Assembly (NCBI GenBank): GCA_963842885.1
Contig: CAWJIE010000002.1
Location: forward strand, 160,001 to 224,000
Origin: an uncultured Nitrososphaerota archaeon
GTDB lineage: Archaea > Thermoproteota > Nitrososphaeria > Conexivisphaerales > DTJL01
Length of the DNA stretch: 64,000 nt
Direction: 5' to 3'
Shown here: positions 9,864 to 42,635 of the stretch, in pieces
Layout of the letters: each line of letters starts with the position of its first letter
How positions within the stretch are numbered: position 1 is the stretch's first letter
Notes under the pieces: model-generated
Seen by the model: only the letters and a program-made list of their open reading frames with translations
Database searches by the model: none
What the model was told of the DNA's origin: nothing
Translations under genes and position numbers: made by a program

Positions 9864-10078
9864 GGCGCTCCTAGCCCACTCCGGCGGCAGGACGATAGGG
9901 CTCACTCGAGGAGTTACAGGAGGCGCGTAACGTTCACTTCAGGGCAGGAAGGCCTGCCTAGCGGCTGAAGCAAGAACAAACCGTCTCCGATCATACGGAA
10001 GTTGTCTATGGAGGAGCTCTTGATGGTGTTGCCGTAGCCCAAGCAGCAAGGAAGGGCTCCCGTTCACCCCCTAGTTGG

Positions 10079-10908
10079 CCTAGTCGCCGGGAGCCTGGCC
10101 CGAGTCGAAGATGGGGCAGAATGCGGCGACCTCCCCCTTCGAGCCTTCGATGGCCACCGCGGTGGAGCCGTCCCCGGCATGTCACGCTGCTGAGCTTCCA
10201 CCCCTGCTCCAGCCCTCCGCCATGGACCCAGTCGGCGACGGCCTTGAGCCGTTCGTCCTTCAACTCCTCGCCGCCGAGCGAGCCCGCGTACCTGACCGCC
10301 AGCTCCACCTTCCTGAAGAGCTCCTCAGGGAGCTCCCCGACCAGGACCCTCTGCGCCAGCGCGCCCAGGAGCTCCTCCCTCCTCTTCTCCTCCTTGGCCC
10401 TCGTTTCGTAGCTGGCCAGGTAGAAGAGGGTGATGAAGGCCACTATGGCCACGAGGCCCTGGGGGGACCTGACGAAGAGGAGCACATAGCCCGCCCACGG
10501 TATGACCAGGGCGGGCACCCCGAGGACCTGGTCGGCTTGGACCGCGTTCGGGTCGTTCAACAGGTTGTTGTCGCCCTTCGTCTGGTAGGACAGCTGGCCG
10601 TCGGACCCGGCCTGGACTCCGACGATCCTGTGGATGACGACGGGCTTCAGCAGCGAGTCGAGCGCCCCGATCCCCGTGCCTGATTGCACGAACACGATGA
10701 TGGAGCCGTTGGCTATGGAATGAGGCGCACCCCTGAAGAGGACGAGGTCGCCGTTCTGAAGGGTGGGGTACATGGAGGTCCCTTCGACGATGGCGAAGGG
10801 GTAGGTCGACGTCCCCATGACGACGGGGAGGACGGCCAGAAACACGAGGACGGCGACCGTAACTATGATCTCGACGTTCCTCTTCTTCAGGAAATCCTGT
10901 CTCTTCAA
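10079..10908 (-). CDS. Signal peptidase I, archaeal/ER type (Sec11/SipW-like) with C-terminal extension; frameshift near 10172
   Basis: Catalytic Ser in GTSMYPTL..GDLV, His in VIHRIV, TKGDNN..D. The shifted frame ends GSTAVAIEGSKGEVAAFCPIFDSGQAPGD*. Confidence 0.9.
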
Positions 10909-12970: not shown

Positions 12971-13021
12971 GCCTTCCTGCCCCCAAAAGAGGAAACGCCG
13001 ACTGTGAAGCCGCAAACAATC

Positions 13022-13057
13022 AGAAAAACCGGGGAGGTATGCGGGCCCTCGCCCGCA
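13022..13057 (-). terminator. Hairpin plus U-tract after the small pilin-like gene (terminator/attenuator)
   Basis: Minus strand: TGCGGGC-GAGG-GCCCGCA (7-bp stem, 13040-13057) followed by TTTTTCT (13028-13022). Confidence 0.55.
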
Positions 13058-13069
13058 CACGCGTTCATC

Positions 13070-13543
13070 CTACGTCACCGAGATGACGATCCCTGTTGGT
13101 GCTGTAAAGGAGCTGGCTTGCATGTCGAACAGGAAGGTCATCGAGCCTGCGATCGTGCTGCTGTTGGTGAAAGTGATCGTAGCGAGTGCAGTATAGGTCG
13201 TGCCAGCGCTCCAGCTGACCGTGATCACGTGGCTGCTTCCGAACAGCCCTGCGGCGGGGGCCAGGGAGACGCTGAAGAACCAGTCGCCGGCAGTCAGTGC
13301 CGTCTGAGCCGTGGTTCCAGTCGCCCATGTCGGGGACGCTGTCGCTGCGCCGGAGTTGGTGACGACGAAGAACCCGTTGCTTGTGGCAGTGAAGCCTCCG
13401 TATACCACGTAGTAGACGCCACTCTGCGATTGAAGCGTGGACGTGGTCACTCCGACTGTTGCGGCAAACGAGGCCACCGAGAACATGGAGATGAGTAGTA
13501 GTGGCAGTAGGACCTTGATTGATAGCTTGCTTTTGATAGACAT
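13070..13543 (-). CDS. Small secreted beta-rich protein, probable major filament subunit (TasA/AbpA-like)
   Basis: Signal peptide ...LLLISMFSVASFA followed by about 130 aa of Thr/Ser/Gly-rich beta strands. First gene of the SipW-type operon. Confidence 0.7.
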   Translation of the reverse strand: MSIKSKLSIKVLLPLLLISMFSVASFAATVGVTTSTLQSQSGVYYVVYGGFTATSNGFFVVTNSGAATASPTWATGTTAQTALTAGDWFFSVSLAPAAGLFGSSHVITVSWSAGTTYTALATITFTNSSTIAGSMTFLFDMQASSFTAPTGIVISVT

Positions 13544-13855
13544 GCTAGTGAATAGAGTGCATTCCCTCTTTCGCTATATGAGCGGGGGTCTTTTTCTTGC
13601 AACTTTCATGTGAATTTCTTTTATGTCGGTAGTTGGATGGGCGAAAAGCTTGAGTTTCTCCCCTTTTGGCAAGATATAAATGCCATTATACATAGAAAGG
13701 CGACGCTTTCGGCCCCTGAAGCGACTCCCTCCTGCAGGAGGCCCCTCCGCCATGTCCGTATCCTGTCGTCGGCCAGCCGACCGTGAACCCCTGTGAAGTT
13801 TCAGTTGACTGACAAAGTATAAACAGCTGAACCGAGGCGTCCCGGTTAACCGCTA

Positions 13856-14569
13856 ATGCTATCCAGCCCCATCTGCACCGAATGCGGGTGCCAGGAGGAA
13901 TCATGCGAGAGCTGCCAGAAGCCCAGCGAGTGCGTCAACTGCGTCTCCTGCTGCTGTTCTCAGGGTCACATGGCCTGGAGGCGGGACAGGATCCATCAGG
14001 GGGTCATGCTCGAATACTATAGCCTCGGATGGATGTCCATCGAGGTCATCGGCTCGATCGGGATTGGACTGCTGTCGAGCAGCTTCGCCCTCATCGCCTT
14101 CGGGAGCGACAGCCTGGTTGAAATCGCCTCCGCGTTCGCTGTGATGCTCCATCTAAGGGGCGACGCATCCGGGTCGAACGATTTCGGCGAGGGCACGGAA
14201 AGGCTCACGAAGTTCCTCCTCGTCGCCCTCCTCCCGATAATCGGAGGAGGTGCACTCTACTCCTACTTCACTGGGGTTGAGCCCGAGTCCTCCCTCTTGG
14301 GCATCGCCGTCTCCCTTGGAGCCGCCATCATCATGCCAGTGCTTTGGATTCAGAAGAGGAGGATAGGGAGGGAGACGAACTGCGCGCCCCTCTCGGTGGA
14401 CGCCGTTCAATCGGCCACCTGTTTCCTGATGTCTCTCGCTTTGCTCGGAGGTCTGCTCATCAACTATCTCTTCGGCATACACTGGGTGGATTACGCTGCC
14501 ACGGCTGTGATCCTCGCCTTCGTATCCAAGGAAGCCGTAGAGGCGTTCAACGAGCGGAACCCTTCTTGA
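13856..14569 (+). CDS. Cation-efflux (CDF-like) membrane transporter with Cys-rich N-terminus
   Basis: SFALIAFGSDSLVE, DAVQSATC, HWVD motifs and 6 TMs. Ten Cys in the first ~36 aa. Confidence 0.75.
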   Translation: MLSSPICTECGCQEESCESCQKPSECVNCVSCCCSQGHMAWRRDRIHQGVMLEYYSLGWMSIEVIGSIGIGLLSSSFALIAFGSDSLVEIASAFAVMLHLRGDASGSNDFGEGTERLTKFLLVALLPIIGGGALYSYFTGVEPESSLLGIAVSLGAAIIMPVLWIQKRRIGRETNCAPLSVDAVQSATCFLMSLALLGGLLINYLFGIHWVDYAATAVILAFVSKEAVEAFNERNPS

Positions 14570-22173: not shown

Positions 22174-22938
22174 TCATTCCACATTGAAGCGCAAGAATAC
22201 AGTCTGTCCCCACACATCGGCAACAACCACAGTATAGGGGCCAGCAGGGAACTGATGAAAGGCGACCACTGAGGAGCCCCCCGTATACGCCGTATAGTAT
22301 CCAGCAGCCCCGTCCAGAGGGCCTCCCTCCGTATACTGCCCGTTTGTGCTGATGACTGACTTGAAGGGGCTCAAGGAGAAAATGATGTCTTCGATATTCG
22401 TCCAGTTGGTGCCTGCTAAATCTACGAACTCCTCCGCCGCCGTATGGCTGCCAGGGAGGAAGGTGATCCTGGTCAGTGTCAGGGGCGCAGCGCAGGGAAT
22501 CGGATAGGGCTCGGCCAGCTGTAGTGGAGGCCCGGCCGTCGAGATGTCGCCCGAAGTGTAGTTGCCCTGGAACACCGCGATGACGAGAATCGGCTGCCAA
22601 TTGCACACGTTCGTGCTGTACGGCCCCCACGCTGTGATGTTAGAATAGGTGGCGAAGTCAGGGTACAACGTGAGGTCTTCTTTGAGGGTGTTCACAAGCT
22701 CCGCCGTAACGCCTATCGCTTCGCCCTGCCGAATCCCGGTCGAGTTCAAGGTCACAGAAAGCTTCAGCCCCAAGGCCGACGTCAGGCTGGCGTTCTGAGG
22801 CGTTGAGTTGAGGCCGCCGGATGACGAATTGCGGCCGCTGGTGGATGGTGGGAAGAATACGAAGGCTAACCCGACGACGTCGAAGAGCATGAGGACCAGG
22901 GCCACTCCCACAAGCACCTTGCTCGCCCCTCTTCTCAT
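22174..22938 (-). CDS. Membrane-anchored secreted hypothetical protein
   Basis: N-terminal TM, beta-rich body with a Cys pair, C-terminal GPYTVVVADVWGQTVFLRFNV. Confidence 0.7.
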   Translation of the reverse strand: MRRGASKVLVGVALVLMLFDVVGLAFVFFPPSTSGRNSSSGGLNSTPQNASLTSALGLKLSVTLNSTGIRQGEAIGVTAELVNTLKEDLTLYPDFATYSNITAWGPYSTNVCNWQPILVIAVFQGNYTSGDISTAGPPLQLAEPYPIPCAAPLTLTRITFLPGSHTAAEEFVDLAGTNWTNIEDIIFSLSPFKSVISTNGQYTEGGPLDGAAGYYTAYTGGSSVVAFHQFPAGPYTVVVADVWGQTVFLRFNVE

Positions 22939-23003
22939 GCCAGCTCCATCGCTAGATTGTCTCCACAGCATCCATAAGCCTAGTCTTTAGAACGACCGCC
23001 GTC

Positions 23004-23819
23004 TTATTGGCTGCCCAAACCGCCACCGGTGAGGGATACCTGAGGCTCGACGGCCACGATCCTCTCCCTTAGCTTGGCTGAGACCTCAGGAAGAAGCTTC
23101 GCCGCGACGTCCCCCATCTTGAGCTGCTGCCACTCAGAGGGACGAATGACTTGGGAGAACCCCATCTTCTCGGCCAGCTCGTATGCCTCCTTGGCCTGGG
23201 CCTCCTCCCCGGAGAAGATGGAGTCCTGGAGGCGCGAAAGCAGGAAGACCGCCGCGTAGATTGCTTGGGCCTTGGAGGCGCCCAGCTCCTTCTCCTTGGC
23301 TTGCAGGGCGACCCCCAGCGCCGCCTTCCTCTCCTCGACGGGCTTGTAGATGCCCAACAGGATGGAGCCGACGACGTTCTCTTCCTTGGGTGGAGCCTGA
23401 GCCCAGAGACCTACGAACGCCTCTCTCGGGTTCTCGCGGACGGTCCTGAGTGCCTCAAACGCGGCGCCCCTGGCTGAGACGAACTCTCTCAAGAGGGGAA
23501 ACAGCTCGTCGCAGAGCTTGCCGTTGCGATCGGCCATCTCCAGGGCGGGCCTGCGGAGGATGGAGGCCAGCTCCAAGACGGTGGAGCCCCTTTCGGAATG
23601 GAGGGAAAAGTCGCCCACCCGCAGGTCCGTCTCCCCCAGCTCCACCACGGTCCTCTCGTCGTACGCGAAGGCCGTCAGCTGGAGGCGCTCCTTCTTGAAG
23701 AGCGAGTGTCTCTCGTAGGTCGCCACTACATTCCTTTTCTCTTCGTCGACTTCCACCGTCACAGAGGAGTACTCTTTTCCCTTGTAAGTGGCGAAGACGA
23801 ACTCCAGCGACCTGCTCAT
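23004..23819 (-). CDS. Hypothetical protein, N-terminal PH-like beta domain plus helical bundle (gene 5 of tubulin-like operon)
   Basis: 4-bp overlap with the upstream gene. About 85 aa of alternating beta strands ending in a helix. Confidence 0.75.
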   Translation of the reverse strand: MSRSLEFVFATYKGKEYSSVTVEVDEEKRNVVATYERHSLFKKERLQLTAFAYDERTVVELGETDLRVGDFSLHSERGSTVLELASILRRPALEMADRNGKLCDELFPLLREFVSARGAAFEALRTVRENPREAFVGLWAQAPPKEENVVGSILLGIYKPVEERKAALGVALQAKEKELGASKAQAIYAAVFLLSRLQDSIFSGEEAQAKEAYELAEKMGFSQVIRPSEWQQLKMGDVAAKLLPEVSAKLRERIVAVEPQVSLTGGGLGSQ

Positions 23820-24859
23820 CGTATCGCCTCCATGCTCAGGTCCTTAGCCTTCATGGCAACCTTACGGTAGCCCTCCTCAAGGTACTTGGGGAGGGGAAGG
23901 CCCTTCACGCCGTATAGCACGAGGAGGTCGTAGAAGCCGTACCTGCTCATGCCCTCCACCACCTTCGACTCCGAGCTGATCAGGTCCGGGAACCTCTTGC
24001 AGTATTCATCGAAGGCCTTGGCTATGTCGCCGGCAAGTTCCCTCCCTGCCAAGGCGAAGAGGTGGGCCATCACGACATCTTCGTTGGGGACGGCCGACGA
24101 CATCACCTCCTTTTGGACCGAGAATGCGTCGGGGACCCCCTTGTACACCTTCCCGGACGCCGCCAGGAGGGGCGAGAAGGCGTGGAAGGTCACGCCGAGG
24201 CGGACGTCCTTCTTAACGAAACCGGAGACCTCCTTCAGGTTGCCCAGGAAGTAGTTCATCACCCTCAGGAGGGCCGCGCTCCCCGTGAGCAGCCCTTCGT
24301 CCTCGGTGAAGCAGGCCAGGTCATCGATGAACTCCTGATTGACGAGGATGAGCGGCTCCTTCCTCCGGACGGCCGCCTGGAGAGAAACGAAGCTGGAGCT
24401 CTTCTCCATGGCCGTGGCTCCCCTCTCCGGCACCAGGGCCATGACGACGGAGTTGGAGTCAAGGATGGGGGACGAAAGGAGGGCTGGCGCCAAGGGATGG
24501 GCCGTGTCGACCACGACGAACCTGTACCTGCACCGGTCGTAGCCGACGAGCCTGAGCCAGAGCGTGATGTCCTTCGAGTAGGCCTTGTAGTATTCGAGCC
24601 ATGTTCCTCCCTCCAACTCCTTCAGTGAGAGGCCCGATGCCTTCCTCTCCTCCGTCGCCCCCAGGGAGACCTCACCCGCCCAGGCGCCGCCGACCTGGGG
24701 AGCAGGGAGGCCCAGAGACAGGACCTCCATCTCACCGAAGTTCGGCGTGACCTTAGGGAGGGTTATCGCGGGGAAGAGCTCCGAGTACAGGACGGGGGCC
24801 CCGCACTGGTCGCAGGTCACCAAGGGGCCCACTTCGTGGCCGTTGACGCACCTAGGCAT
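23816..24859 (-). CDS. Zn-ribbon plus degenerate tubulin/FtsZ-like fold protein (gene 4)
   Basis: CVNGH...CDQCG. Then VLSLG, VVVD, VMALVP, LILVNQ and a C-terminal LLVLYGV in tubulin-like order. No GGGTG motif. Confidence 0.6.
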   Translation of the reverse strand: MPRCVNGHEVGPLVTCDQCGAPVLYSELFPAITLPKVTPNFGEMEVLSLGLPAPQVGGAWAGEVSLGATEERKASGLSLKELEGGTWLEYYKAYSKDITLWLRLVGYDRCRYRFVVVDTAHPLAPALLSSPILDSNSVVMALVPERGATAMEKSSSFVSLQAAVRRKEPLILVNQEFIDDLACFTEDEGLLTGSAALLRVMNYFLGNLKEVSGFVKKDVRLGVTFHAFSPLLAASGKVYKGVPDAFSVQKEVMSSAVPNEDVVMAHLFALAGRELAGDIAKAFDEYCKRFPDLISSESKVVEGMSRYGFYDLLVLYGVKGLPLPKYLEEGYRKVAMKAKDLSMEAIR

Positions 24860-27113
24860 TCTTGACCACCATGGCCTCGTCGGAGGAGTCGAACGACACC
24901 TTCCTGTGAGTCAGCATATACAGCTTGATGTAGACTATGGAGGCCTCGCGCTGGAAGGGTAGCTCCGAGATGGGGACGTATTCCCGCTTGGCGACCGCCG
25001 CCTCGAGGACCTTCCTCGCTATGGGATACTGCGAGAGGAGTATGAGATTCTGCTCGTCCACCCTCCTCTTCTCCTGGAGGTTGGAGAGGACGGAGGTGGC
25101 CTCCTCCACGAAATTGGAGAGGGAGCCGAAGGTGGGCTTGCTCGCGGAGAGCTCTTGGGACAGCGTCTGGAGCCTCGTCGACTGATCTATGGACTCGAAG
25201 CGTATGACCTTGGTGGCCCCAGGCGTGAGGGACCTTATGAGACGCTCGAGCTGTTCCGACTCCTTCCGCCAGTTTTCGGTGGCCTCCTGAAGGAGGAGGG
25301 AGGTGGCTGCGAGGGCCACGGCGTAGTCGGGGGAGGAGGCCGGCTCGGCGGGGGTGAGCTTCTCCATCTCGGCTTCCAGCCTCCCCCTCCTTTGGCCGTC
25401 GAGGAGCGCGCCCAGCCCCCTGACCTTGGCCGTCAGCTCCTTCACCTTGTCCTCCAGCTCCTGCTTCGACGTGTTCCTGAAGTTCAACCAGTACTCCTCG
25501 GAGACGAGCCTCATCCCCGTGACGTACTCTCCCGAGTCGAAGAGGTAAGAGGCGTTCACCGGAGGGGTGAGGTCTTGGCGGTCAGTGATGAAGTTGTATG
25601 CGGTGCTGACGGCTGTGTACTGGGTGAATAGCTCGGATGCAGCATCCCGGACGCCCTTCGTGAGCTCCTTGTAGCTTTCTACGGCCGCCTCCAGCGACAG
25701 GAGGCCGTCGATGTTGTCCAGAGTGGGGAAGCGGCCCGCGGCCTTCGCCTCCTCCAGCATGTTGTTGTGGGTCGAAGCCAGGGCCGAGAGGGAGGTGAGC
25801 TCGTTGATGACCTTAATCCTGAGGTTCTCGGGCATCTTGTCGAGGCTGGGGAGGACCTTCCCCTGCAGCTCCGCCGTCCAGTTCACCACAGTCTCGTAGC
25901 TGGCGGTGCCGATCCCCCTATCGACGTCCTTCATCAGGGCGGAACACTCGTCGACGGCGAGCTTCTCGGGGCGGACGGATACGGTGGGCGCTTCGGAAGC
26001 TATCGTCTGGATGGCACGGGACGCCTCCTCCAGGAGCTCCTTGTTCTTGGTCAGCAGGGAGGCGAGGTCGTTCTTGGCGAACTCCAGGCGCTCCAGCCGC
26101 TGAATCGAGTACTCCCTCACGGTGAAGATGAGCCCCACGCCCAGAGCACATGAAAGGAGGAGGACGTCGTCTAGGGGGTCCGTAACGAGCGACGTCTGGT
26201 AGCCCCCCGCCGATGAGGGGGAGAGCGTTGTGATGAGCGCTACGAAGGTGACGGCCGTCACGAGCCCGGCCACCAGCGGAGAAAGGACCTTGACCAGCTG
26301 GCGAAACCTTTCGAATGCCCCCAGCCGGCTCAGCGACGTGACCACTATTCCGGCGACGGAGGCTGACGCGCTGAAGATGATGCCCAGCAGGATGACGGGG
26401 ATGACCAGGTAGGTCGAGTCGGCTGAGGAGATGTACGTGGTCACCTGGGTGGCATAAGGGGATTCGATGTTTAAGGGGAAGACGAGGGGGACGTTGAGCC
26501 CCGAAAGGGAGGGGGCCATGTAGTCGTGGAGATCCTTCAGGTAGGAGAAGATGACCGGTATATGTGTGGAGAGGACGCTGGCCTGGAAATAGATGCCGTT
26601 CTCAAGGAGGAGGAGGGGGATGAGGGTGCTGACAAAGGTGACGGAGACAGGACCGATGCTCTCCAGCCCCCCCACGGCCGCCGCCGCCACGATGAGGGCT
26701 ATTGAAAGGTAGTAGAAGGGGGTGAGCATGAGGGCGACGGCCATCACGGCAAGCGCCATCGACGACGGCTCAATCCTAGCGCTGACCAACTCGAAGACGA
26801 AGAGGAAGGCCATCAGGCCCAGGGTCAGGAGGCCGTTGGTGGTCTTGACGACGTGCAGGAGGCCGAAGCCCAGAAGCTGCCAGCCGATGGTCGCGAAGGC
26901 GAAGAGGGCCAGCATGACGGAGGCCCAGCGCGGCCTTCTGAGGGCGGCCAGGCCCAGCCCCAGGGCGACAAGGAGGGCCAGCACGGGGAAGCCTGAAGCA
27001 GTGGGGAGGAAGTTGACGACGGAGAGCCAGACGAAGGCGGAAAGGGCGATGAGCGGCGACGCGGTGTACTTGTTGATTGTGGCTCGCGCTTTGGAGGTGG
27101 TCCCTAAGGTCAC
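24852..27113 (-). CDS. Polytopic membrane protein with large helical cytoplasmic region and C-terminal winged-helix-like end (gene 3)
   Basis: About 9-10 TMs in the first 335 aa, then ~400 aa of amphipathic helices/coiled coil. Confidence 0.8.
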   Translation of the reverse strand: MTLGTTSKARATINKYTASPLIALSAFVWLSVVNFLPTASGFPVLALLVALGLGLAALRRPRWASVMLALFAFATIGWQLLGFGLLHVVKTTNGLLTLGLMAFLFVFELVSARIEPSSMALAVMAVALMLTPFYYLSIALIVAAAAVGGLESIGPVSVTFVSTLIPLLLLENGIYFQASVLSTHIPVIFSYLKDLHDYMAPSLSGLNVPLVFPLNIESPYATQVTTYISSADSTYLVIPVILLGIIFSASASVAGIVVTSLSRLGAFERFRQLVKVLSPLVAGLVTAVTFVALITTLSPSSAGGYQTSLVTDPLDDVLLLSCALGVGLIFTVREYSIQRLERLEFAKNDLASLLTKNKELLEEASRAIQTIASEAPTVSVRPEKLAVDECSALMKDVDRGIGTASYETVVNWTAELQGKVLPSLDKMPENLRIKVINELTSLSALASTHNNMLEEAKAAGRFPTLDNIDGLLSLEAAVESYKELTKGVRDAASELFTQYTAVSTAYNFITDRQDLTPPVNASYLFDSGEYVTGMRLVSEEYWLNFRNTSKQELEDKVKELTAKVRGLGALLDGQRRGRLEAEMEKLTPAEPASSPDYAVALAATSLLLQEATENWRKESEQLERLIRSLTPGATKVIRFESIDQSTRLQTLSQELSASKPTFGSLSNFVEEATSVLSNLQEKRRVDEQNLILLSQYPIARKVLEAAVAKREYVPISELPFQREASIVYIKLYMLTHRKVSFDSSDEAMVVKNA

Positions 27114-29770
27114 GCTGATCCACGCCCTTTCGCCCTAGGCGAAGGGCCGCTCAGCTTGGAGATCAGTTCAGCGAGGTCCGTGATGCCGTGCTCCAACAGG
27201 AAGGAGCGGAACATGACGCGCTCCACCTTGCGGACGCCGTCGGCGTCGTTCCTCATTCCCTGAAACTTCTCCAGCTGCTCGACTGTGGCCTTGGCGAAGA
27301 TTATCAGGAATGTGATGGTCCATGGGTCCACCTGCGGTATCTGGCGGATAGAGATGCTCTTGCTTGCCTCCACGCTGGAGAAGATGTTTAGGGTGCTCGA
27401 AAGGTTCACCTGGAGGTCCTGGTCCCAGAGCCCCTGGGGGATGCCCACAGTCGCCCATATCAGGTCGGAGCGGTAGCCGTCGTTTAGGCCGGCGTAGTTG
27501 GAGACGCTGAATATGCGCATGTAGCTCTTTACCACGTCCCTGAAGCGGTCCCTGTCGACTATCTCCCTGAGTATGCCCTCGCCCTTAAGCGAGGCCTCCT
27601 CCTCCGTGAGTATCTTCTTCAGTATCTTCTCCTGTTCGTCGTCGCTGAGCTCGACGACCCTTTCGAAGTAGCTCCCCGTGCCCGAGATGCTGCTGAGCAT
27701 GCTGTTGAGCTCGGCCGTCTTGCCGACGATAGAGTTAAGAGACTTCCTGTACGGTGAAGTGACTTCGAGGGACTTCTCCAAGGACGTCAGGATGTCCAGC
27801 TCGGAATGGAGCCTGTCCACCTCCGCCTTCCTCTCCTCGAGCGCGGTCTTCTGGGCGCCTATCTCACCCTTCACGGACTCAAGGTGGCGCCGGATGACCT
27901 TCCGTCTGCCGCTGATGTCCAGCCTTATCTTCTGGAGCTCCCCCTTGAGCCTCGTCTCCTCCGTCTCCTTCTGCGCCAAGAGGCGCATGAGGGACTCCAT
28001 CTCCTCCCCCGCCTCCTTGAACCTGGACTCCAGGTTCTTCCTTACCACCCTCACGCCGGGGATGTACTGGTCCGACATCTTGATCTCGGTCTCGGGCTTC
28101 GTCAGAATAGTCCCCGCCGTCTTGAACAGTGGGGTCACCTCCGTCTCGCCCACGGTGACGGCCCTCTTCCCCTCCGGGCTCTGGTCCTTGGCGAAGCGTA
28201 TCTTCAATTCGTCGGCGAGGGCCTTGGTCCTCAGGTACGTGCCGAAGACTTGAATGGCGCCGTTGACCAGGTTGACGAAGTTGATGTAGGAGCGTATCTG
28301 CCTGAGCTGGCTGGAAGTCACGAACTTGCTCGCCGTCAAGCTGCTTTCGACGTCGGCGAGGCTGGCGGCGAGCCCCTTGGTGAAGTCCTCGTAGGTCCTG
28401 CTTATCTCCGAGATGTCCTGGCTCCAGCGGCCTATCTGCTGCATCACGGAGTACTCCACCGTGTCCTCGGAGAAGGCCATGGCCTTCAGCGCCTTGGCCC
28501 ACTTGTCGTTGTAATATGCGGCGAAGTCCTCTATCCCCTTGACCTGCTTCTTGAACTCGAGATCATACTTGCCCGCCCTGTGTATGACGTCCTCCACTTC
28601 GGCGTCGAAGGACTCCGGCCTGTAGTTGTTGATGGAGATGAGGTGCCTCCTGAAAAGCTCCACCAGTTCGATATACCGCCTCTTCAGCACGTCGTCGATC
28701 TGAGAGAGGGACTCCCTCTTGAGGTTGACAAAGGAGCCCACCGACTCCAGGAGCTTCAGGTACTCGTGCAGGTACTTCAGGTAGTCCTCCAGGGGGTAGC
28801 GGATCTTGAGGTAGGCGATGTTGTGGACCCAGTTCTGGCCGAAGTCGTTGTTCGTCCCGACGCGGCTGAGGAGGTCGGCCAGGTCGAAGTTCATCATAAC
28901 ATGGACGATGTCGACGATGGCCCCGTCCAGCTCCTTTTTAGCGCTGAGAAGGGAGCTCTTGTTGTTGTAGACAGGGTCTAGAGGTAGGAAGAACATGGCG
29001 GTGAAGGGGTTCCTGTATGCCCCGCCATACGCCTTGATCACCCGTTCGTTGGCCTCCCTGTCGAAGAGGAGTTGCGCCTCCATCAGCGTAGCATAGGGGG
29101 CCGGTCCCCGGGCTAGGAGGTCGTCGGCCGAGCTAGGGAGTATGCCCAGCCCCACTATTGGGACGGCGGATCCCAGTTTCGCCCTCAGGTGGCGGGCGAA
29201 GTCGAAGATGAGACCGCTCCCCGTGCCTCCTCCCAGCCCGAAGACCAGGAGGACTATGGGCTGATACTTGGAGGTGAGGACCCTGTCCTTGTAGACGGAC
29301 ATCACGCTGTTCAGCTCGACGTAGTGGTAGTAGTTCAGGGCGTACACGGCCTTGCTGAGCGCCCTCTGCCTGCCGACCCCCCCGGCTAGGGGCGGGATGG
29401 ACATGGAGGACTGGATCCACGGCCTGTAATCATTGACGGTGACGCCATCCTTTTCGAGGTACTTGGAGTACTTCTCCATGAACTCGAACAGGGCGTCGGG
29501 GGTGTTGAACTTGATATTCAGGGGCTTGAGCCACAGGCGATCGACGCCGATTCCCTTCTCCTCAAGCTTCGCCATGGCCTCCTTGTAGGAGGCCTGGAGG
29601 GAGACCAGGTCCCCATCGGCCACGTCGAGGGCGAGGCAGGCGATGCGGAAGTCCTCGGTGGCGAGGAGGCGTGCCAAGCGCTCGCTCTCTATGAGAGTCT
29701 GGATGACGTTGGCGCCCGTGCCGCCGAGGCCTATGACGTGGATGGAGGCGAAGACGTTGGCCTTGCTCAT
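27110..29770 (-). CDS. Tubulin/FtsZ superfamily GTPase with ~400-aa coiled-coil insertion (886 aa; gene 2)
   Basis: T1 IGLGGTGANV, T3 GGVGR.R, signature FGLGGGTGSG, ILP, T7-like NFDLADL. Then coiled coil and a C-terminal alpha/beta domain. Confidence 0.92.
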   Translation of the reverse strand: MSKANVFASIHVIGLGGTGANVIQTLIESERLARLLATEDFRIACLALDVADGDLVSLQASYKEAMAKLEEKGIGVDRLWLKPLNIKFNTPDALFEFMEKYSKYLEKDGVTVNDYRPWIQSSMSIPPLAGGVGRQRALSKAVYALNYYHYVELNSVMSVYKDRVLTSKYQPIVLLVFGLGGGTGSGLIFDFARHLRAKLGSAVPIVGLGILPSSADDLLARGPAPYATLMEAQLLFDREANERVIKAYGGAYRNPFTAMFFLPLDPVYNNKSSLLSAKKELDGAIVDIVHVMMNFDLADLLSRVGTNNDFGQNWVHNIAYLKIRYPLEDYLKYLHEYLKLLESVGSFVNLKRESLSQIDDVLKRRYIELVELFRRHLISINNYRPESFDAEVEDVIHRAGKYDLEFKKQVKGIEDFAAYYNDKWAKALKAMAFSEDTVEYSVMQQIGRWSQDISEISRTYEDFTKGLAASLADVESSLTASKFVTSSQLRQIRSYINFVNLVNGAIQVFGTYLRTKALADELKIRFAKDQSPEGKRAVTVGETEVTPLFKTAGTILTKPETEIKMSDQYIPGVRVVRKNLESRFKEAGEEMESLMRLLAQKETEETRLKGELQKIRLDISGRRKVIRRHLESVKGEIGAQKTALEERKAEVDRLHSELDILTSLEKSLEVTSPYRKSLNSIVGKTAELNSMLSSISGTGSYFERVVELSDDEQEKILKKILTEEEASLKGEGILREIVDRDRFRDVVKSYMRIFSVSNYAGLNDGYRSDLIWATVGIPQGLWDQDLQVNLSSTLNIFSSVEASKSISIRQIPQVDPWTITFLIIFAKATVEQLEKFQGMRNDADGVRKVERVMFRSFLLEHGITDLAELISKLSGPSPRAKGRGSA

Positions 29771-30720
29771 AGGGCGTCACCCAGCTGCTCCTTCAGCTTC
29801 TTCAGGCGCTCCGCCAGCGCCTTGTCGTACTTCCCTGCCGTGACTTCGAGCGACGCCAGCTCCTTCTGGGCGTCGCTGACGATGCTGCCCGCGAAGCCGC
29901 GCCTGGACCTGGTCCTGACCCACATCAGGGCCAGGAGGAAGGCCACCAGCGCCAGGACGACGGTGGAAACCAGCAGCAGGGTGTAGACCGTGGTGCTGGG
30001 CGGGGCGGGGAAGTTCTGCGGATTGAGCGTGTTCAACAAGTCCGTGGCCGTCACGGGGAGGCCTGACGTGTAGATGGTCTGGGCCTGAGCCAGGAGCCTG
30101 TTGACTACGCTGGTGTACGCCGGGTCAATCTGGCCCGAGGAGATGAGGTTGGACTTCTGTGAGTAGGTGTTGAGATAGCTCTGGATGGCGTCGTCCGATA
30201 TCGTGATGCTGTAGTTCGCCACACGGGAGCCACCTGTCACGAAGGCAGTGATCAGGTCGAAGCTGGGCTTGGCGAACCTGAGGCTGAAGGGGATTCCTTC
30301 GCTGTTGTTGAGCACTTGCGTCGTGAAGGTGGCGGGGATGGTGAACACGGCAGAGAGGGTGACCTCACCCTGCACCTGGGTGAATATCACAGCGGGGGAC
30401 CCTGGGGTGAAGGACGCGGGGCTGTATCCAGCGTAACCAGGCGTCAGGACGTACCAGTATTGGGAGCCGCTGAGGGTCATGCTGGGGTCCAGGAAGACCG
30501 TAAAATTGGAGATCGACTGGGTGAACGGGACTTCCAGGGTGATGGTTACGTTGTAGTTGTGACCAGCCAGCAGCGGCTGACCGGCCGCGACGTCCACGTT
30601 CCCCGTGAAGTCATGCACTGAGTAAGCGCTCACCCAGTTCGTCGTAGCGGCATGGGCAGGAATCGCCAGAAAGGCGAGTGACAGAACTAACAGTAGCGAG
30701 AGGCCTCTCTGCCTTCTCAT
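29767..30720 (-). CDS. Secreted single-pass membrane protein with cytoplasmic coiled-coil tail (gene 1)
   Basis: Signal peptide ending AHA, beta-rich ectodomain, PAPPS linker, TM, RTRSRR stop-transfer, helical tail. Confidence 0.8.
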   Translation of the reverse strand: MRRQRGLSLLLVLSLAFLAIPAHAATTNWVSAYSVHDFTGNVDVAAGQPLLAGHNYNVTITLEVPFTQSISNFTVFLDPSMTLSGSQYWYVLTPGYAGYSPASFTPGSPAVIFTQVQGEVTLSAVFTIPATFTTQVLNNSEGIPFSLRFAKPSFDLITAFVTGGSRVANYSITISDDAIQSYLNTYSQKSNLISSGQIDPAYTSVVNRLLAQAQTIYTSGLPVTATDLLNTLNPQNFPAPPSTTVYTLLLVSTVVLALVAFLLALMWVRTRSRRGFAGSIVSDAQKELASLEVTAGKYDKALAERLKKLKEQLGDAL

Positions 30721-30723
30721 AAA

Positions 30724-30750
30724 GGAGGTAGAATCTACCTCCGAATATAA
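30724..30750 (-). promoter_or_regulatory. TATA box plus perfect 19-bp palindrome (putative operator) of the tubulin-like operon
   Basis: Minus strand reads TTATATTC GGAGGTAGA-T-TCTACCTCC TTT ATG. Confidence 0.65.
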
Positions 30751-33393: not shown

Positions 33394-35817
33394 CTAGCCG
33401 GAGGGATGCCAGGAAATAGGGAACGTAAGCGTGAACGTGGTTCCCTTCCCAGGTTCGCTGTCTACGGAAATCGTGCCTCTGTGGGCTTCCACGAGCCTCT
33501 TGCAGATGGCCAGCCCCAGGCCCGTGCCCTTTGGCTTCGTCGTGAAGAAGGGTGTGAAGAGCTTCCCCATGTTCTCCTTCGATATCCCCTGGCCGGTGTC
33601 CGCAAAGGAGAGGACAACGGTCCTCTGATGAACGACCATCCCGATCGTGAGGGTCCCTCCCTTGGGCATGGCGTCGATGGCGTTGAAGATGATGTTCTGG
33701 AAAATCCTGACCAGGTAGGTGGAGTCTCCGGAGACCGGCGCTTCGGGAAACGGCTTCGTCACGATCCTGACGTGGGCAGGAACTGAGACCTGCCTGAGAG
33801 CCGACCTGACCACCCTGCCGAGGTCCAGCTCCTTCATCTTCAGCTTCGTCTTCTTGGAGAAGTCGAAGAGGTCGGCGATGATCCCGTTGGCGTGGACCAG
33901 GCTCTCGTCCATGGACTTGAGCACTCCCTGCAGTTTCCTCCTCTCCCTTTCTGGAAGGACGTTCTGCAGGTAGAAGAGGTCGGTCCGGACGGCGGTGAGG
34001 GGGCTCCTCAGGTCATGGCCCACCTGGGCGGCCACGCTCCCGATGGCGGCCAAGCGCTCCGCCTTCAGCAGCTGCCTGTTGGATTCGTTAAGCTCCCTGG
34101 TCCTCTCCTTGACCATCTCCTCCAGCTTGGTGCTGTACCTCTTCAGGTCCTCCTCCATGATCTTCCTGTCGGTGATGTCCGTGCCCACGCTGAGTATTAT
34201 GGGCTCGCCGCCGGTGTCCTTCGCAACGTTGTTGCTCCAGTGGACCCAGACCCTCGTGCCATCCTTCTTGGTGTTCTCGTTGACGCTGTTGGCGTAGCTT
34301 TCGGGGTGGGCGTAGATGTCCTCGATAAGCGTGCCCAGGTCCCTCCCCGTCGACTCGGTCTTCGGGGCGATGGTGCCAACCACCCCTTTCCCGATGAGCT
34401 CCTTCTCGGGGAACCCGAAGAACTCCTCCCCGTATTCGTTGATGCTGAGTATCCTGCCCTTCATGTCCTGCTTGAGGATGATGCTGCGGGCGTTCTCCAC
34501 CAGCTCCCGATACTTCTCCTCGGAGGAGCGCAGCGCCTCCTCGTTCTTCTTTATCTGGGTGAGGTCCGTCACGGAGACTATGACTCGCGAATAGGTCTTC
34601 TCGGAACCCGGCGGTATGATGTACCTGACGACGACGGGGATGAGCTTCTCTCTAAGGGTCTTGTTCTGGGTCTCGGTCTCGAACTCCCTGCGCCCTTCCG
34701 CCAGCGCCACGAACCTGTCGACGAAACCGGCCACTGCCTCTTCGCTGAGGATCTGATAGAGATTGTTCAGCTCCCCCTTGCCGCCGGCTTCGTAGAGGCG
34801 AACGAGAGCCGCGTTGGCGTCGATGAGCTTCACCTTCCCGACCAGCCTTTTGACTTCGCCAGGGTTCGCCGCGAGGTGCTCCCTGAGCGATCTGATGCCC
34901 CGCCGAGCCATGACGTCCAGCTCGGCCTTCGCCACGGAGAAGTCCTCCACCATCAGTGCGACAGGGCATTCTTCGAAGAGCGTCCTATACCTCCGTTCGC
35001 TCTCGAGGAGGGCCGCCTCCATCGTCTTCCGCTCGGTGATGTCGTAGACGAGGCCGATGATCCCTAAGATTCGGCCGCGTTCACCCTTCAAAGGGAGCTT
35101 GGTGGTTTCAGCCACCATGGCTTTCCCTCTTTCCGCCCATGGCCCCTCCCAGTGGATGGCCTCGCCTGTTGTCAGCACCCTGTTGTCGTCGGCGGCGTAC
35201 TTGTCCGCCAGCGCCCTGCTGGTGATGTCGTAGTCCGTCTTCCCGACGATCTCCGACTTGCTGAAGCCGACCACATCGCAGAACCTCCTGTTGGCGGTCA
35301 TGAAGCGGCCCCGGGTATCCTTGAGAAACGCGTACGCGGGGATGCTGTCCAGGAGAGTGCTCACCTCCCTTTCCGTCAGCCGAAGCTTCTCCTCCATCTC
35401 CCTCCTTTCGGTGATGTCTTCCAGCAGGGCTACTATGGAAGACGGGGAGAGGTCGGCGTCCCTGACGACCGAGATCGTCATGTGCCCCCGGCGCGCGACC
35501 CCCTCCTTCGTGCTGAACCTGACCTCCGCCTGATGGCTGTCCGTGAGACCGGCGAGGAGCTCCAAATAGGCAGCCTTGTTCCTTGCCTCGTCTTCGGGGT
35601 GGATGATTGCCTCCCAGTCCATCCCCTTGAGCTCGTAGAGCTCGTACCCCAGCATCTTGCAAAGCGCGGGATTCGCATCGATGATGGTGCGCTCGACATC
35701 CACTACGGCAACACCGACGGCGGCCCTCTGGAAGATGGTTCTAAATCTGGCCTCGGCCTCTCGGACGGTGACCTCGGTGGGCCGCGCTCCAGGTCCAGAG
35801 TCCATGATGTCGCTCAA
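33394..35817 (-). CDS. Cytoplasmic 4xPAS sensor histidine kinase
   Basis: Four PAS/PAC units ending D(I/L)T. H-box VGHDLRSPL, N-box NIIFNAIDA, DTGQGI, FTPFFTTK, GTGLGL. Confidence 0.95.
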   Translation of the reverse strand: MSDIMDSGPGARPTEVTVREAEARFRTIFQRAAVGVAVVDVERTIIDANPALCKMLGYELYELKGMDWEAIIHPEDEARNKAAYLELLAGLTDSHQAEVRFSTKEGVARRGHMTISVVRDADLSPSSIVALLEDITERREMEEKLRLTEREVSTLLDSIPAYAFLKDTRGRFMTANRRFCDVVGFSKSEIVGKTDYDITSRALADKYAADDNRVLTTGEAIHWEGPWAERGKAMVAETTKLPLKGERGRILGIIGLVYDITERKTMEAALLESERRYRTLFEECPVALMVEDFSVAKAELDVMARRGIRSLREHLAANPGEVKRLVGKVKLIDANAALVRLYEAGGKGELNNLYQILSEEAVAGFVDRFVALAEGRREFETETQNKTLREKLIPVVVRYIIPPGSEKTYSRVIVSVTDLTQIKKNEEALRSSEEKYRELVENARSIILKQDMKGRILSINEYGEEFFGFPEKELIGKGVVGTIAPKTESTGRDLGTLIEDIYAHPESYANSVNENTKKDGTRVWVHWSNNVAKDTGGEPIILSVGTDITDRKIMEEDLKRYSTKLEEMVKERTRELNESNRQLLKAERLAAIGSVAAQVGHDLRSPLTAVRTDLFYLQNVLPERERRKLQGVLKSMDESLVHANGIIADLFDFSKKTKLKMKELDLGRVVRSALRQVSVPAHVRIVTKPFPEAPVSGDSTYLVRIFQNIIFNAIDAMPKGGTLTIGMVVHQRTVVLSFADTGQGISKENMGKLFTPFFTTKPKGTGLGLAICKRLVEAHRGTISVDSEPGKGTTFTLTFPISWHPSG

Positions 35818-39126: not shown

Positions 39127-40674
39127 ATGAAGAGCATCCTCCTGATATTCGAGGTCCACCAGCCGTTCAGGCTCAAGAGGGACTTCCTCTGGGCCAAGCG
39201 AGCCTTCAGGAAGCTCGACAAGGGAGGGCTCACGGAGCACTACTTCGACTCCGCCGCCGACAGGGAGGTCTTCGAAAGGGCGGCAAAGAAATGTTACGTG
39301 CCCGCCAACGCCGCTTTGCTGCGGGCCATCGAAAGGAACGCCGACGGCGAAAGTCCGGTGAAGCTGTCTTTCAGCCTTTCAGGGACATTCCTCGATCAGT
39401 GCGAGCTCTACGGAAAGGAAGTCCTGGAGGGGTTCAGGCAGCTCGCCAGGACTGGGAGGGTGGAGTTCCTGGGGCAGACGTACTACCATTCGCTGAGCTC
39501 CCTCTATCAGGACAAGGGCGAGTTCGAGGAGCAGGTGAGGGAGCAGGGAAGGGCCGTCAAGGAGCTCCTGGGGGCTTCCACTACCGCTTTCGAAAACACG
39601 GAGCTCGTATACAACAACTCGATAGCCAAGGCCGTCGCGAGCCTCGGGTTCAAGGCCATCTGCACGGAGGGCGCGGAGAGGGTCCTGGGCGACCGGTCTC
39701 CCAACTACATCTACGAGGCCGCTGAGAGCGGAGGCCTCAAGGTAATCCTGAGGAACTACAGGTTGACGGACGACGTGGGGTTCAGGTTCTCGGACAGGAG
39801 GTGGAGCGAATGGCCACTCACGGCCGAGAAGTACGCCTTTTGGCTGTCCAAGGCGGAGGGAGATTCCGTCTGCATCTTCCCCGACTACGAGACGTTCGGC
39901 GAGCATCACTGGCCGGAGACCGGCATACATGACTTCCTGGCCGGGCTGCCGGGGGAGATCCTGAAGAGGGGGGACTTGAAGATGGAGCTCCCCTCCGAGT
40001 ACGCCGGCCACCACGGTGCGGCGGGCGTCCTGGACGTCCCGGAACCTCAGACCATATCCTGGGCCGACATCGAGCGGGGGACGGCGAGCTGGATCGGGAA
40101 CTCCATGCAGTGGGCCTACTTTACCTCCGTGAGAGAGATGGAGCCTCTGGTGAAGGAGTCCGGGTCGCGCGACGTCATCAGGACGTGGAGGCTTCTGGGG
40201 GTGAGCGACCACCTCTACTACATGTTCACCGGAGGGGGAGGGCCGGGGACGGTACATTCGTATTTTAGCCCGCATGGGTCGGCCGCGGAGGCGTTCGTGT
40301 GCGCCCAGGCGGCGGCATTCGACTTCGAATGGAGGGTGAGGGAGATAGTCGACGCCGCCAACGAGCCATTCGAGTTCCACACCGAGGAGGGAGAGAAGGG
40401 CTTCGTCGGGGTGCGCGCGTGGAGCCTGGCGGGGTTCAGGAGAGCCCTTTCGAAGGTCCCCCCCGAAAGCCTCCTCTTCCACGTGAAGAGGGGCGACTTC
40501 GAGGCTTGGGCCGAGGGGAGCCTGAAGGATGAGGCCCTGACGAAGGAGATGGCGGAGCTCAGGCGGAGGAAGCTGAATGGTGAAACGGTCAGGGCGGAGC
40601 TACTTCGCATCTCGACTAAACAGCTGAATGCTAGGAAAGGATATCTCAAGGCCATGGGTCTGACCATAGAGTGA
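39127..40674 (+). CDS. GH57 alpha-amylase/amylopullulanase with C-terminal DUF5752-like domain
   Basis: FEVHQP, QTYYHSL, FENTEL, DYETFGEH, SDH.YYM. C-terminal PFEF...SL.FH..RGDF..W. Confidence 0.9.
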   Translation: MKSILLIFEVHQPFRLKRDFLWAKRAFRKLDKGGLTEHYFDSAADREVFERAAKKCYVPANAALLRAIERNADGESPVKLSFSLSGTFLDQCELYGKEVLEGFRQLARTGRVEFLGQTYYHSLSSLYQDKGEFEEQVREQGRAVKELLGASTTAFENTELVYNNSIAKAVASLGFKAICTEGAERVLGDRSPNYIYEAAESGGLKVILRNYRLTDDVGFRFSDRRWSEWPLTAEKYAFWLSKAEGDSVCIFPDYETFGEHHWPETGIHDFLAGLPGEILKRGDLKMELPSEYAGHHGAAGVLDVPEPQTISWADIERGTASWIGNSMQWAYFTSVREMEPLVKESGSRDVIRTWRLLGVSDHLYYMFTGGGGPGTVHSYFSPHGSAAEAFVCAQAAAFDFEWRVREIVDAANEPFEFHTEEGEKGFVGVRAWSLAGFRRALSKVPPESLLFHVKRGDFEAWAEGSLKDEALTKEMAELRRRKLNGETVRAELLRISTKQLNARKGYLKAMGLTIE

Positions 40675-42635
40675 GCAGCGCGATAACATTCGGCCGTGAT
40701 GTCCTCGGGAACTACGAGCAATCGAAGTCGAAGGAATGGCTCGTGACGAACGGCCTGGGGGGCTACGCCTCTTCCACGGTCATCGGCGCCAATTCGAGGG
40801 GTTACCACGGGCTGCTGGTGGCCGGGTTGCAGCCGGACCTGACCCGCGTCCTCCTGCTGTCCAAGGTCGAGGACGAGCTGCGCACCGCAAAGGGTTGGTA
40901 CCCCCTGTCGACCAACCACTATCCCGGCCTCCTCCACCCCGAGGGGTTCAAGCACCTAAAGGGGTTCGAGCTGGCCCCCGATCCGACGTGGCGCTACACC
41001 TTGGACGGGACGACCGTCCGGAAGGTCGTCTCCATGCCTCAGGGCCTCAATGCGGTGAACGTTTCATATACGGTCGAGGAGGGAGGGGGGCCGTCGGAGT
41101 TGACGATCAGGCCCCTGATCAACCACAGGGGCTTCCACGGCAGGACGAAGGAGGCGGGCGGCCTTTCCTTCTCCCAGGAGTTCGCCGGCAGCGCCGTCAG
41201 GGTCGATTCGTCGGCCGGGCCCTCCCAGCCTGTACCTGAAATGCGACCATGGGACCTACGAGGGCACCGGCGTCTGGTACCGGCACATGCTCTATGACGA
41301 GGAGGAGGAGAGGGGGTATCCCAACAGCGAAGACCATTTCAACCCGGGCGTCTTCCGGGCCATCCTCGACGTGGGGGAGGGGCTCACGCTGACGGCTTCG
41401 GTGGAGCCCCCCGCTGCCCTCCCTGGGGGACCTCCTCCTGCGCCCGGAACGGAGGGGTACGCGTCAAAGCTCGACGCGCCCTTGGCGCTGCTCGCCTGGA
41501 TGAGGCTGGCGTCCCGCCAGTTCGTCGTGACGCCGCCCGGCACCGATGACCTTACGATAGTGGCGGGGTACCACTGGTTCGGAGAGTACGGCCGCGACGC
41601 CGCTGTCTCCATCCCGGGGCTGCTCCTGGCGACGGGACGAGAGGACGCGGCCAGGGCCGTCTTCAGGAGGTTCTTCAGGGAACAGCGCGGAGGGCTCCTC
41701 CCCGTCGTCATGGATGGAGGAAATCGCTCCTGGGCCTCCGTGGACACCTCCCTGCTCTTTGTCTACGCCATGAAGAAGTACTGGGACCGGACGAAGGACA
41801 TGGCCTTCCTCAAGGAGGTCTGGGGTGGGCTCACTTCCGATCATGGAGTCCTATGCGAAGGGGACAGACTTCGGCATCAGGATGGCCGAAGACGGGCTCA
41901 TCGAGTCCCGGACGGAGGACCTTCCCCTGACCTGGATGGACGCTGTGGTGCGCGGCGCGCCGACCGTGCGAAGGTTGGCCAAGTCCGTAGAGGTCAACGC
42001 CATGTGGTACAACGCCCTGAGGAGCATGGACGCCCTGAGACGGGCGACGGGCGCCACCGATGGAGGCTACCTCGAGCTGTCGAAGAAGGTGAAGGCCTCC
42101 TTCAACAAGCAGTTCTGGTTCGCGGAGGGTGGCTACCTCTTCGGACTCCGTCGACGGAGAGCGGAGGGACGTCTCCATAAGGCCTAACCAGGTCTTCGCC
42201 ATCAGCCTACCATACGCCGTGCTGGCGGGCCAGAGGTGGAACAGAGTCCTCCACGTCGTGCAGGAGCACCTTTTCACCCCATACGGCCTAAGGAGCTTGT
42301 CGCCGAGCGACGCCAACTACAAGGGGGTATACTTCGGCAGCCCCGACCAGAGGGACTATGCCTATCATAACGGCACGGCGTGGTCCTGGCTCGCAGGGCC
42401 TTTCATTACGGCTGCCTTCAAGGCGAGAAGCGCCCCCAGGGACGCGCTGGTCCGCAGGATGTTGAACGCCTTCCTGGGGCACGTGGCCGACGCCGGCCTG
42501 GGAAGCATCTCGGAGATCTTCGACGGCAATTCACCTCACCTGCCCCGTGGCTGCATCGCCCAGGCGTGGAGCGTGGCGGAGCTTCTGAGGACCTACGACG
42601 AAGATTTAAGGAAGGCCGGGGCGACCGTCGCGTAG
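40671..42635 (+). CDS. Glycogen debranching enzyme (amylo-alpha-1,6-glucosidase), 3 frameshifts
   Basis: EWLVTNGLGGYAS, AGYHWF..YGRD, LTWMDA, VEVNAMWYN, IRPNQ, YHNGTAW, QAWSVAE. Confidence 0.92.

Follow-up and report, generated by a model that had tools for sequence, protein, structure and literature searches.

An apparently undescribed FtsZl1/Tubulin_2 subfamily with a conserved set of partner genes in archaea and Chloroflexota

FtsZl1 proteins and the Nitrososphaerota locus

Makarova and Koonin defined the FtsZl1 family in 2010 and, in the part of their analysis that concerns it (PMC2875224), listed vWA proteins, a distinct GTPase, Ser/Thr kinases and OmpA proteins as its usual operon partners and predicted that the family remodels membranes. 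For the FtsZl1/Tubulin_2 proteins, which have been known from sequence since 2010, we found no structure, no demonstrated polymer and no function in the searchable literature. Here we describe a five-gene locus (g1 to g5) that occupies positions 23004-30750 of a 64,000-nucleotide stretch of DNA from an uncultured Nitrososphaerota archaeon (contig CAWJIE010000002.1, positions 160,001 to 224,000; hereinafter, the window). The locus is apparently an undescribed, conserved FtsZl1/Tubulin_2 subfamily, represented by g2, with its own fixed partner set, and the most interesting new element is an obligatory second tubulin-fold protein, g4, the nucleotide site of which is decayed in most archaeal lineages.

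In the relevant sections of the 2023 study by Santana-Molina (PMC9871819), Tubulin_2 proteins serve only as an outgroup. The Culexarchaeia paper (PMC9723716), in its account of FtsZ-like proteins, reports FtsZL1 in two Sulfolobales and non-canonical FtsZ-like proteins, given there as undetermined, in Bathyarchaeia and Nitrososphaeria. The 2024 survey of ESCRT (PMC10936438) does not mention the operon in its pertinent passages, and a term search of the supplementary tables of the 2010 paper (PMC2875224) returned no FtsZl1 from Nitrosopumilus or Cenarchaeum. An earlier reading of the window from its sequence alone (the sequence-only reading) had proposed that the system is undescribed, and this still stands, given that full-text literature searches, whose scope excludes subscription-only papers, found no description of the operon or of this gene neighborhood.

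The g2 protein resembles FtsZl1 in that an N-terminal FtsZ-like GTPase, a helical coiled-coil middle part and a C-terminal domain follow one another in the same order; the presence of membrane proteins in the operon and the patchy spread are shared as well. The neighborhood differs. Pfam searches detected no vWA, P-loop GTPase, Ser/Thr kinase or OmpA domain in g1-g5, in 23 open reading frames (ORFs) of the window or in a sample of 19 ORFs that flank 10 of the 80 loci described below, in agreement with the sequence-only reading, which had pointed out that the usual FtsZl1 partners are missing. Here the partners are g1, g3, the second tubulin-fold protein g4, and either g5 or another gene, gX. 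Furthermore, g2 displays a motif, FDLAD, that resembles the T7 loop of FtsZ, whereas T6-H7 was not identified in FtsZl1 in 2010. Judging from its sequence, g2 fits the FtsZl1 protein architecture but not the FtsZl1 neighborhood.

Another close counterpart is the SSO1376/1378 gene of S. solfataricus, listed in the 2010 material as a form of ~1040 aa with fused transmembrane (TM) segments, followed by proteins of 831 aa and 263 aa (PMC2875224). In our data set, locus L118 (G149:C1, minus strand; ORFs 7552-10707, 5235-7544 and 4422-5216) encodes a 1051-aa Tubulin_2 protein with N-terminal hydrophobic segments, then a 769-aa membrane protein and a 264-aa protein, which is the layout given for SSO1376-SSO1380 in the 2010 supplement (PMC2875224), except that it is intact in L118. 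This type shares with g2 the Tubulin_2 domain and the occurrence in Thermoproteota (hhalign probability 98.7% for the g2 family against the L118 protein, over g2 residues 1-395). However, its TM segments are fused N-terminally to the GTPase, whereas g1 is a separate ORF; hhalign detected no homology of g3 or g5 to the neighbors of the SSO1376-type gene, and no g4-like second tubulin is found beside this gene in L118.

Conservation and patchy spread of the module

According to the ORF list, the five genes lie on the minus strand, namely g1 at 29767-30720 (317 aa), g2 at 27110-29770 (886 aa), g3 at 24852-27113 (753 aa, GTG start), g4 at 23816-24859 (347 aa) and g5 at 23004-23819 (271 aa). Successive ORFs overlap by 4, 4, 8 and 4 bp, exactly as the sequence-only reading had it, and none of the five translations contains an internal stop.

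In a search for relatives of g2, 8000 candidates were scored and 311 of them reached E 1e-3 or better; among the 120 matches listed, almost all are 860-910 aa long and cover 97-100% of the query. In a scan that used one genome per species, 181 stretches were confirmed and 80 loci were kept, including 34 from Bathyarchaeota, 23 from Nitrososphaerota, 3 from Thermoproteota, 5 from unplaced archaea and 15 from Chloroflexota. Partner genes were counted with iterated hidden Markov models (HMMs) run against all ORFs of the kept loci. Where there is room upstream, g1 is directly 5' of g2 in 70 of 71 loci; where at least 5.5 kb is available downstream (54 loci), g3 was detected in 51, g4 in 48 and both in 47. 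One of the misses, that of L011, is due to ORF calling, since tblastn had located both genes in this locus. The association is more than chance, given that the same genes recur in the same order in dozens of distant genomes, and g1-g5 is a real, conserved module. The co-occurrence of the genes elsewhere, on which the sequence-only reading had staked its proposal, thus holds.

We built a quick maximum likelihood tree of 73 g2 sequences (LG+G4, SH-aLRT support, midpoint root), leaving aside ORFs shorter than 800 aa, loci L001-L005, and L044, which comes from the same metagenome-assembled genome as L043 and gave identical values. The four clades of this tree match four operon layouts. Clade A, to which the window belongs (16 rows), has the order g1-g2-g3-g4-g5, where g4 carries a Zn-ribbon and a dead G-box. 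Clade B, with 13 archaeal rows and all 15 from Chloroflexota, has g1-g2-g3-gX-g4, again with a Zn-ribbon on g4. Clade C (4 rows) ends with a g4 that lacks the Zn-ribbon and with a distinct fifth gene, g5' (g1-g2-g3-g4-g5'), and in clade D (25 rows, all Bathyarchaeia) g4 is on the opposite strand between g2 and g3, with a gX-like gene nearby in four cases. The 15 Chloroflexota rows form a single clade within clade B (support 98), and since this clade is nested among archaeal ones, the tree suggests one transfer of the module, in either direction, between archaea and Chloroflexota. Locus L120 (G068:C6, 9408-12290) encodes a 960-aa g2 homolog (E 3.5e-155), and its surroundings, out to ~8 kb, showed no g1, g3 or g4; this may be a stand-alone or rearranged variant.

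Within these lineages the module is sparse. A g2 match is present in 4 of 41 close relatives, the window's own genome included, but one of these four matches is weak and another, at 35% identity, contains a TGA. Among 401 Thermoproteota sampled evenly, 31 have Pfam Tubulin_2, and 15 of the 31 (own genome included) show a frame of 874-907 aa. In the class to which a Dehalococcoidia-titled metagenome-assembled genome belongs, 13 of 301 genomes carry a full-length g2. Two genomes of the same genus retain, at 44-74% identity, a block that consists of genes for an SDR protein, a 165-aa protein, a CAAX protease, a PAS kinase and LigB, and in both of them g1-g5 are absent beside the SDR gene at this syntenic site. 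Among viral contigs there were 41 pattern matches, none of which was confirmed. On plasmids, only distant relatives of the N-terminal domain were found, such as a 514-aa Rhodococcus protein with 31% identity to g2 residues 9-289; in its locus (L122, Rhodococcus jostii RHA1 plasmid pRHL2, 8860-12440), this Tubulin_2 protein is followed by 99-aa and 568-aa hypothetical proteins and adjoined by an aliphatic amidase gene, and there is no vWA gene. The module is therefore an accessory, patchily spread trait, a point that goes beyond the sequence-only reading.

Such spread raises the question of a conflict or defense module, or another niche-specific one, with g1 as a putative surface sensor and the tubulin-like GTPases as a membrane switch or an abortive-response effector rather than a housekeeping cytoskeleton. 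The absence from the conserved SDR-CAAX-kinase-LigB site in the same-genus genomes, the nested position of the Chloroflexota clade and the variation of the fifth subunit (g5, gX or g5') all agree with this explanation, as do the low genome counts. We nevertheless consider it unlikely: in a PADLOC 2.0 search, which could miss a new system, the only matches were to coiled-coil-type LmuB, for g2 (E 2e-5) and g3; no nuclease, protease or toxin domain was found in g1-g5; the flanking genes are of the housekeeping kind, not defense islands; none of the viral matches was confirmed; and g2 is strongly conserved, with ~60% identity throughout clade A.

The distribution also bears on cell division. The window's genome encodes a further Tubulin-family gene unrelated to the locus (L086; G000:C5:53490-53747, a 325-aa frame with 37.8 bits to Pfam Tubulin), along with a weak Snf7-like match, and g2 is therefore unlikely to be the division protein. 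Both this additional gene and the presence of the module in only 4 of 41 relatives count against a core-division role.

The tubulin-fold proteins, their partners and the locus borders

The g2 protein passes the Pfam Tubulin_2 model (PF13809) with 41.5 bits against a cut-off of 27 (residues 12-214), which bears out its earlier assignment as a tubulin-superfamily GTPase homolog. It consists of a GTPase domain (~1-330), a helical middle part (~340-700) and a conserved C-terminal domain (~700-860), and begins directly at the T1 loop; the sole hydrophobic window, 171-189, is the T4 strand. The T1 loop (GLGGTG, 13-18) and the T4 signature (GLGGGTGSG, 178-186) align with those of solved FtsZ and CetZ in profile searches of the PDB. 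In an alignment of 66 sequences, G178, G180-182, G184 and G186 are invariant, and G14, G16 and G19 as well as F295, D296 and D299 are invariant or nearly so. The last three are the conserved positions of NFDLAD (294-299), which resembles the T7 motif of FtsZ, NxDFAD. The T7 reading gains some support from the alignment of FDLAD with FDLDD of the distant TM-fused Tubulin_2 subfamily (hhalign probability 98.7%, E 2.8e-16). On these sequence features, g2 is assigned to the tubulin superfamily, and within it to the FtsZl1/Tubulin_2 kind.

The middle part of g2 (residues ~340-700) is helical and charged, and our own heuristic marks heptad-like segments at 331-375, 436-479, 573-620 and 636-672, with a conserved turn at G621/K624 between the last two. 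Weak SMC-type matches to residues 550-715 support the heptad-like interpretation. Of the giant coiled coil put forward earlier, the helical arm with heptad-like segments stands, but the stretch is modest (~573-620 and 636-672, plus two shorter segments). Nor is the size of g2 its novelty, as the sequence-only reading had suggested, because large coiled-coil proteins are the norm in FtsZl1 (PMC2875224). In the C-terminal block (~700-860), W772, P778, W782 and W817 are invariant. In the stored ESM-Atlas model of a homolog 74% identical to g2, this block is nearest to other Tubulin_2 clusters (TM-scores of 0.51-0.64), and residues ~700-850 reach CetZ_C, TubZ-like_C and FtsZ_C domains at 0.42-0.46; one Atlas row met the bar for a name. 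A sequence-profile search of the PDB gave nothing usable for this domain, and hhalign found no match between it and g4. The kinship with the FtsZl1 C-terminal domain, drawn from the Atlas look-up, is a lead only.

The g4 protein combines an N-terminal Zn-ribbon (residues 1-30; C4, H8, C16 and C19) with a complete two-domain tubulin/FtsZ fold, so that the description of it as a Zn-ribbon/tubulin-like protein is upheld by the family profile, the structural model and the Foldseek search alike. The window's g4 has no Pfam match; the family profile, however, matches the solved structures of CetZ1 (4b46_A, E 4e-10) and BtubB (2.6e-9), as well as those of Asgard AtubB2, TubZ and gamma-tubulin. Pfam Tubulin (PF00091) is matched by 32 of the 53 family members and Tubulin_2 by 11. 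The AlphaFold2 model of the window's g4 (pLDDT 88.6, pTM 0.82) has CetZ (3zid_A, E 1.1e-10) as its top Foldseek match, and tubulin/FtsZ chains make up at least 500 of the matches with E 1e-3 or better.

At the nucleotide-loop site, where GGGTGxG would stand, the window's g4 reads VVDTAHPLAPA. Of the 53 members, 14 keep the signature GGG[TM]G, namely those of Chloroflexota and of three early clade-B archaea; in marine Nitrososphaeria and clade-D Bathyarchaeia the signature is degenerate, and in clades A and C it is missing. Along the window's lineage, as along most lineages of archaea, g4 has lost the GTP-binding signature. Clades C and D have no Zn-ribbon on g4. The locus differs from the known pairs, alpha/beta-tubulin, BtubA/B and Asgard AtubA/B, and from CetZ: g2 and g4 come from very different branches (Tubulin_2 and Tubulin/CetZ-like, respectively), g4 is without a nucleotide loop in the window's clade, and the set further includes a Zn-ribbon, membrane partners of its own and a giant helical arm, the pairing of g2 with g4 being our proposal.

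These features could also be accommodated by a GTPase that does not form filaments. In such a switch or signaling system, g2 would be a regulated dimer, with the logic of dynamin or the signal recognition particle, placed between g1/g3 and cytoplasmic targets, and g4 would be a pseudo-enzyme regulator. The loss of the g4 nucleotide loop in most archaeal clades would agree with this, and the g2 segments 573-620 and 636-672 around the G621/K624 turn would suit a hairpin arm; moreover, it has been proposed in the 2010 discussion of FtsZl1 that these proteins possibly do not form filaments (PMC2875224). On the other side are the invariance of the FD..D motif of g2 and the complete two-domain tubulin fold that g4 keeps in the model, a fold suited to longitudinal contacts. 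The tubulin fold hydrolyzes GTP via subunit-subunit contacts, which likewise counts against the switch. On balance, we regard it as improbable.

The presence of TubZ among the profile and fold matches of g4, together with its N-terminal Zn-ribbon, brings to mind a TubZ-like system for the segregation of DNA or plasmids, with the Zn-ribbon binding DNA. We assign this a very low probability: the locus sits on a chromosome among housekeeping genes, the conserved partners include two membrane proteins, clades C and D lack the Zn-ribbon, and no centromere-like repeats or TubR-like gene were noticed, although no systematic search for them was made.

The membrane assignment of g1 and g3, already part of the sequence-only reading, follows from hydrophobic segments that we called in g1-g3 with our own Kyte-Doolittle heuristic. 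The g1 protein fits the surface-exposed single-pass protein envisaged earlier, with a signal-peptide-like segment (4-22), a predicted ectodomain of ~200 aa that holds all four NxS/T sequons (within 57-169), a helical stalk, a PxPP motif and a single TM segment (241-259). An Arg-rich stop-transfer stretch and a conserved, predicted cytoplasmic helix of ~45 aa complete the protein, in which R269, D299 and L313 are nearly invariant. Neither Pfam nor a PDB sequence search gave a match. Directly 5' of g1 and on the same strand, three loci of clade A encode a protein of 870-944 aa (L008, 4066-6900; L017, 4406-7015; L035, 4401-7010); the two that were scanned, from L008 and L017, bear an InlB B-repeat (Flg_new_2) domain.

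For g3, 9 hydrophobic segments within residues 18-331 and ~420 non-hydrophobic residues after them come close to the ~10 TM segments and 400-aa helical tail read earlier. The tail, ~400 aa and helical, closes with a conserved C-terminal module (consensus NYP..E..I...L.....V...DLP.....A..YLKLY........FD). No Pfam family matches g3, which, from its sequence, looks like a scaffold rather than an enzyme. Locus L019, from Nitrososphaerota, has a second, divergent g3 copy of 793 aa (2147-4528, minus) upstream on the opposite strand, with an adjoining g5-like tblastn match.

The g5 protein comprises a beta-rich N-terminal domain of ~90 aa and a helical C-terminal half and has no Pfam, NCBIfam or PDB match. 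With its profile, 102 clusters were retrieved from 1.84 billion representatives (E 1e-3 or better), almost all of them with a length of 200-290 aa. By a deeper profile, g5 is probably a homolog of g5', the fifth gene in clade C (234-245 aa; probability 89%, E 2e-6), and its N-terminal ~90 residues are possibly homologous to the clade-B gX (~325 aa; probability 58.5%, E 9.6e-5). A PDB profile search with gX gave nothing usable, its match to the PH domain of TFIIH Tfb1 being very weak (E 0.6), and because of this weakness the PH-like nature ascribed to g5 from the sequence is not confirmed and stays a hint. In L019, g4 and g5 are fused in one ORF (12894-14453) of 519 aa, which joins g4 (37% identity) to the C-terminal half of g5; P0211 (524 aa) is a g4-g5 fusion too, and P0151, which has garbled stretches, also looks fused. 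Homology between g5 and g4, as would follow from matches of an iterated g5 HMM, was rejected, these matches having been caused by the fused L019 ORF.

Upstream of g1, a TATA-like box, TTATATT (30744-30750, minus), lies 24-30 nt 5' of the ATG at 30720, as is typical of leaderless transcripts in archaea, and a perfect inverted repeat, GGAGGTA-N5-TACCTCC (30724-30742, minus), lies between the two. The former is a putative promoter element and the latter a candidate operator or 5' hairpin; the sequence-only reading had taken them for a TATA box and an operator. The GC content of the region is 0.60-0.63, the same as in the rest of the window. The product of an ORF at 22174-22971 (minus), 32 bp 3' of g5, is probably secreted or anchored in the membrane and contains several N-x-S/T sites; the ORF has neither a Pfam nor a PADLOC match and, lacking a homolog in any related locus, is not part of the module. 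In marine Nitrososphaeria, a ~990-aa transglutaminase-like protein is encoded convergently downstream of the operon. A PAS-rich histidine kinase of 807 aa (33394-35817, minus) is encoded on the same strand, 2.7 kb upstream of the operon; since its block is syntenic in relatives that are without the operon, the kinase probably does not serve the operon specifically. Farther away, a glycogen-debranching enzyme gene (40671-42635) is split, with GDE_N positions 1-159 in the ORF at 40671-41297 and GDE_N positions 187-217 plus the start of GDE_C in the ORF at 41287-42180. This is a frameshift, from either pseudogene formation or assembly error, so the frameshifts that the sequence-only reading called common elsewhere have at least one example.

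A possible membrane-attached machine

The reading that we favor, tentatively, is that the products of g1-g5 would together make one membrane-attached machine with two tubulin-superfamily proteins at its core and with GTP-dependent local shaping or organization of the membrane or cell surface as its output. In this scheme, g2, with its T1 and T4 loops and FtsZ-T7-like FDLAD, would be the active GTPase and would assemble in a GTP-dependent manner, bearing the helical coiled-coil arm and the conserved C-terminal domain. The most likely role of g4 would be that of a non-hydrolyzing partner that pairs with, caps or nucleates g2 assemblies, like one of the tubulins of a heterodimer. The long, predicted cytoplasmic tail of g3 and the conserved cytoplasmic helix of g1 would hold the assembly at the membrane and link it to the cell surface, and g5 or gX would bind g4, g5 serving as a bridge; the fused g4-g5 ORFs of L019 and P0211 support the link between these two. 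The output might be the formation of protrusions, vesicles or surface patches, as an accessory trait and not as core division. The proposed arrangement recalls FtsZ with FtsA, ZipA or SepF, where a tubulin-fold GTPase is likewise held at the membrane by dedicated partners; however, g1, g3 and g5 have no sequence relation to those tethers, and the module is accessory, unlike the conserved division machinery of FtsZ.

Several observations weigh against this reading. T6-H7 was not identifiable in FtsZl1, and the 2010 text allows that such proteins possibly do not form filaments (PMC2875224). In our profile searches, g2 aligned with solved FtsZ and CetZ at T1 and T4 only, with no alignment to a solved T7; the T7 identity of FDLAD is accordingly a putative one, drawn from likeness to the FtsZ motif. 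Over the whole alignment, g3 is almost devoid of invariant residues, two prolines being the only ones, and g5 is not universal: gX takes its place, or g5 was not found, in many clade-D loci. Finally, the patchy cross-domain spread also fits a conflict or niche-specific system. What the analysis establishes is which genes belong to the set and how they are conserved, the families and folds, the state of the motifs and the accessory spread; polymerization, GTP hydrolysis, the contacts between the proteins, their topology and the cellular output are inferred, as is the trans-envelope, GTP-driven filament of the sequence-only reading.

A more elaborate version of the machine, which we think rather unlikely, makes g2 a 'split' tubulin. 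The GTPase half (1-330, with the T7-like FDLAD) and an activation half similar to FtsZ_C/CetZ_C (~700-860) would be set apart by a helical arm of ~370 residues; g2 would form a heterodimeric, membrane-tethered polymer with the pseudo-GTPase g4, wired to the surface receptor g1 via the polytopic anchor g3, and the whole system would have passed between Thermoproteota and Chloroflexota. If true, a tubulin pair of the 'one active, one silent' type would have been invented here independently.

In place of a vague 'tubulin-like hypothetical protein', the analysis sets a concrete five-part machine that can be tested, and it reveals a large, well-conserved subfamily with fixed partners, with 181 confirmed stretches in one scan and members in two domains of life. 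It also points to a transfer of a cytoskeletal module across domains. One g2 homolog (P0109, 43% identity) is named as coming from Sulfolobus tengchongensis and, Sulfolobus being a cultivated genus, may allow experiments. The module offers a natural system in which to ask how pairs of active and inactive tubulins, together with their membrane tethers, arise outside eukaryotes.

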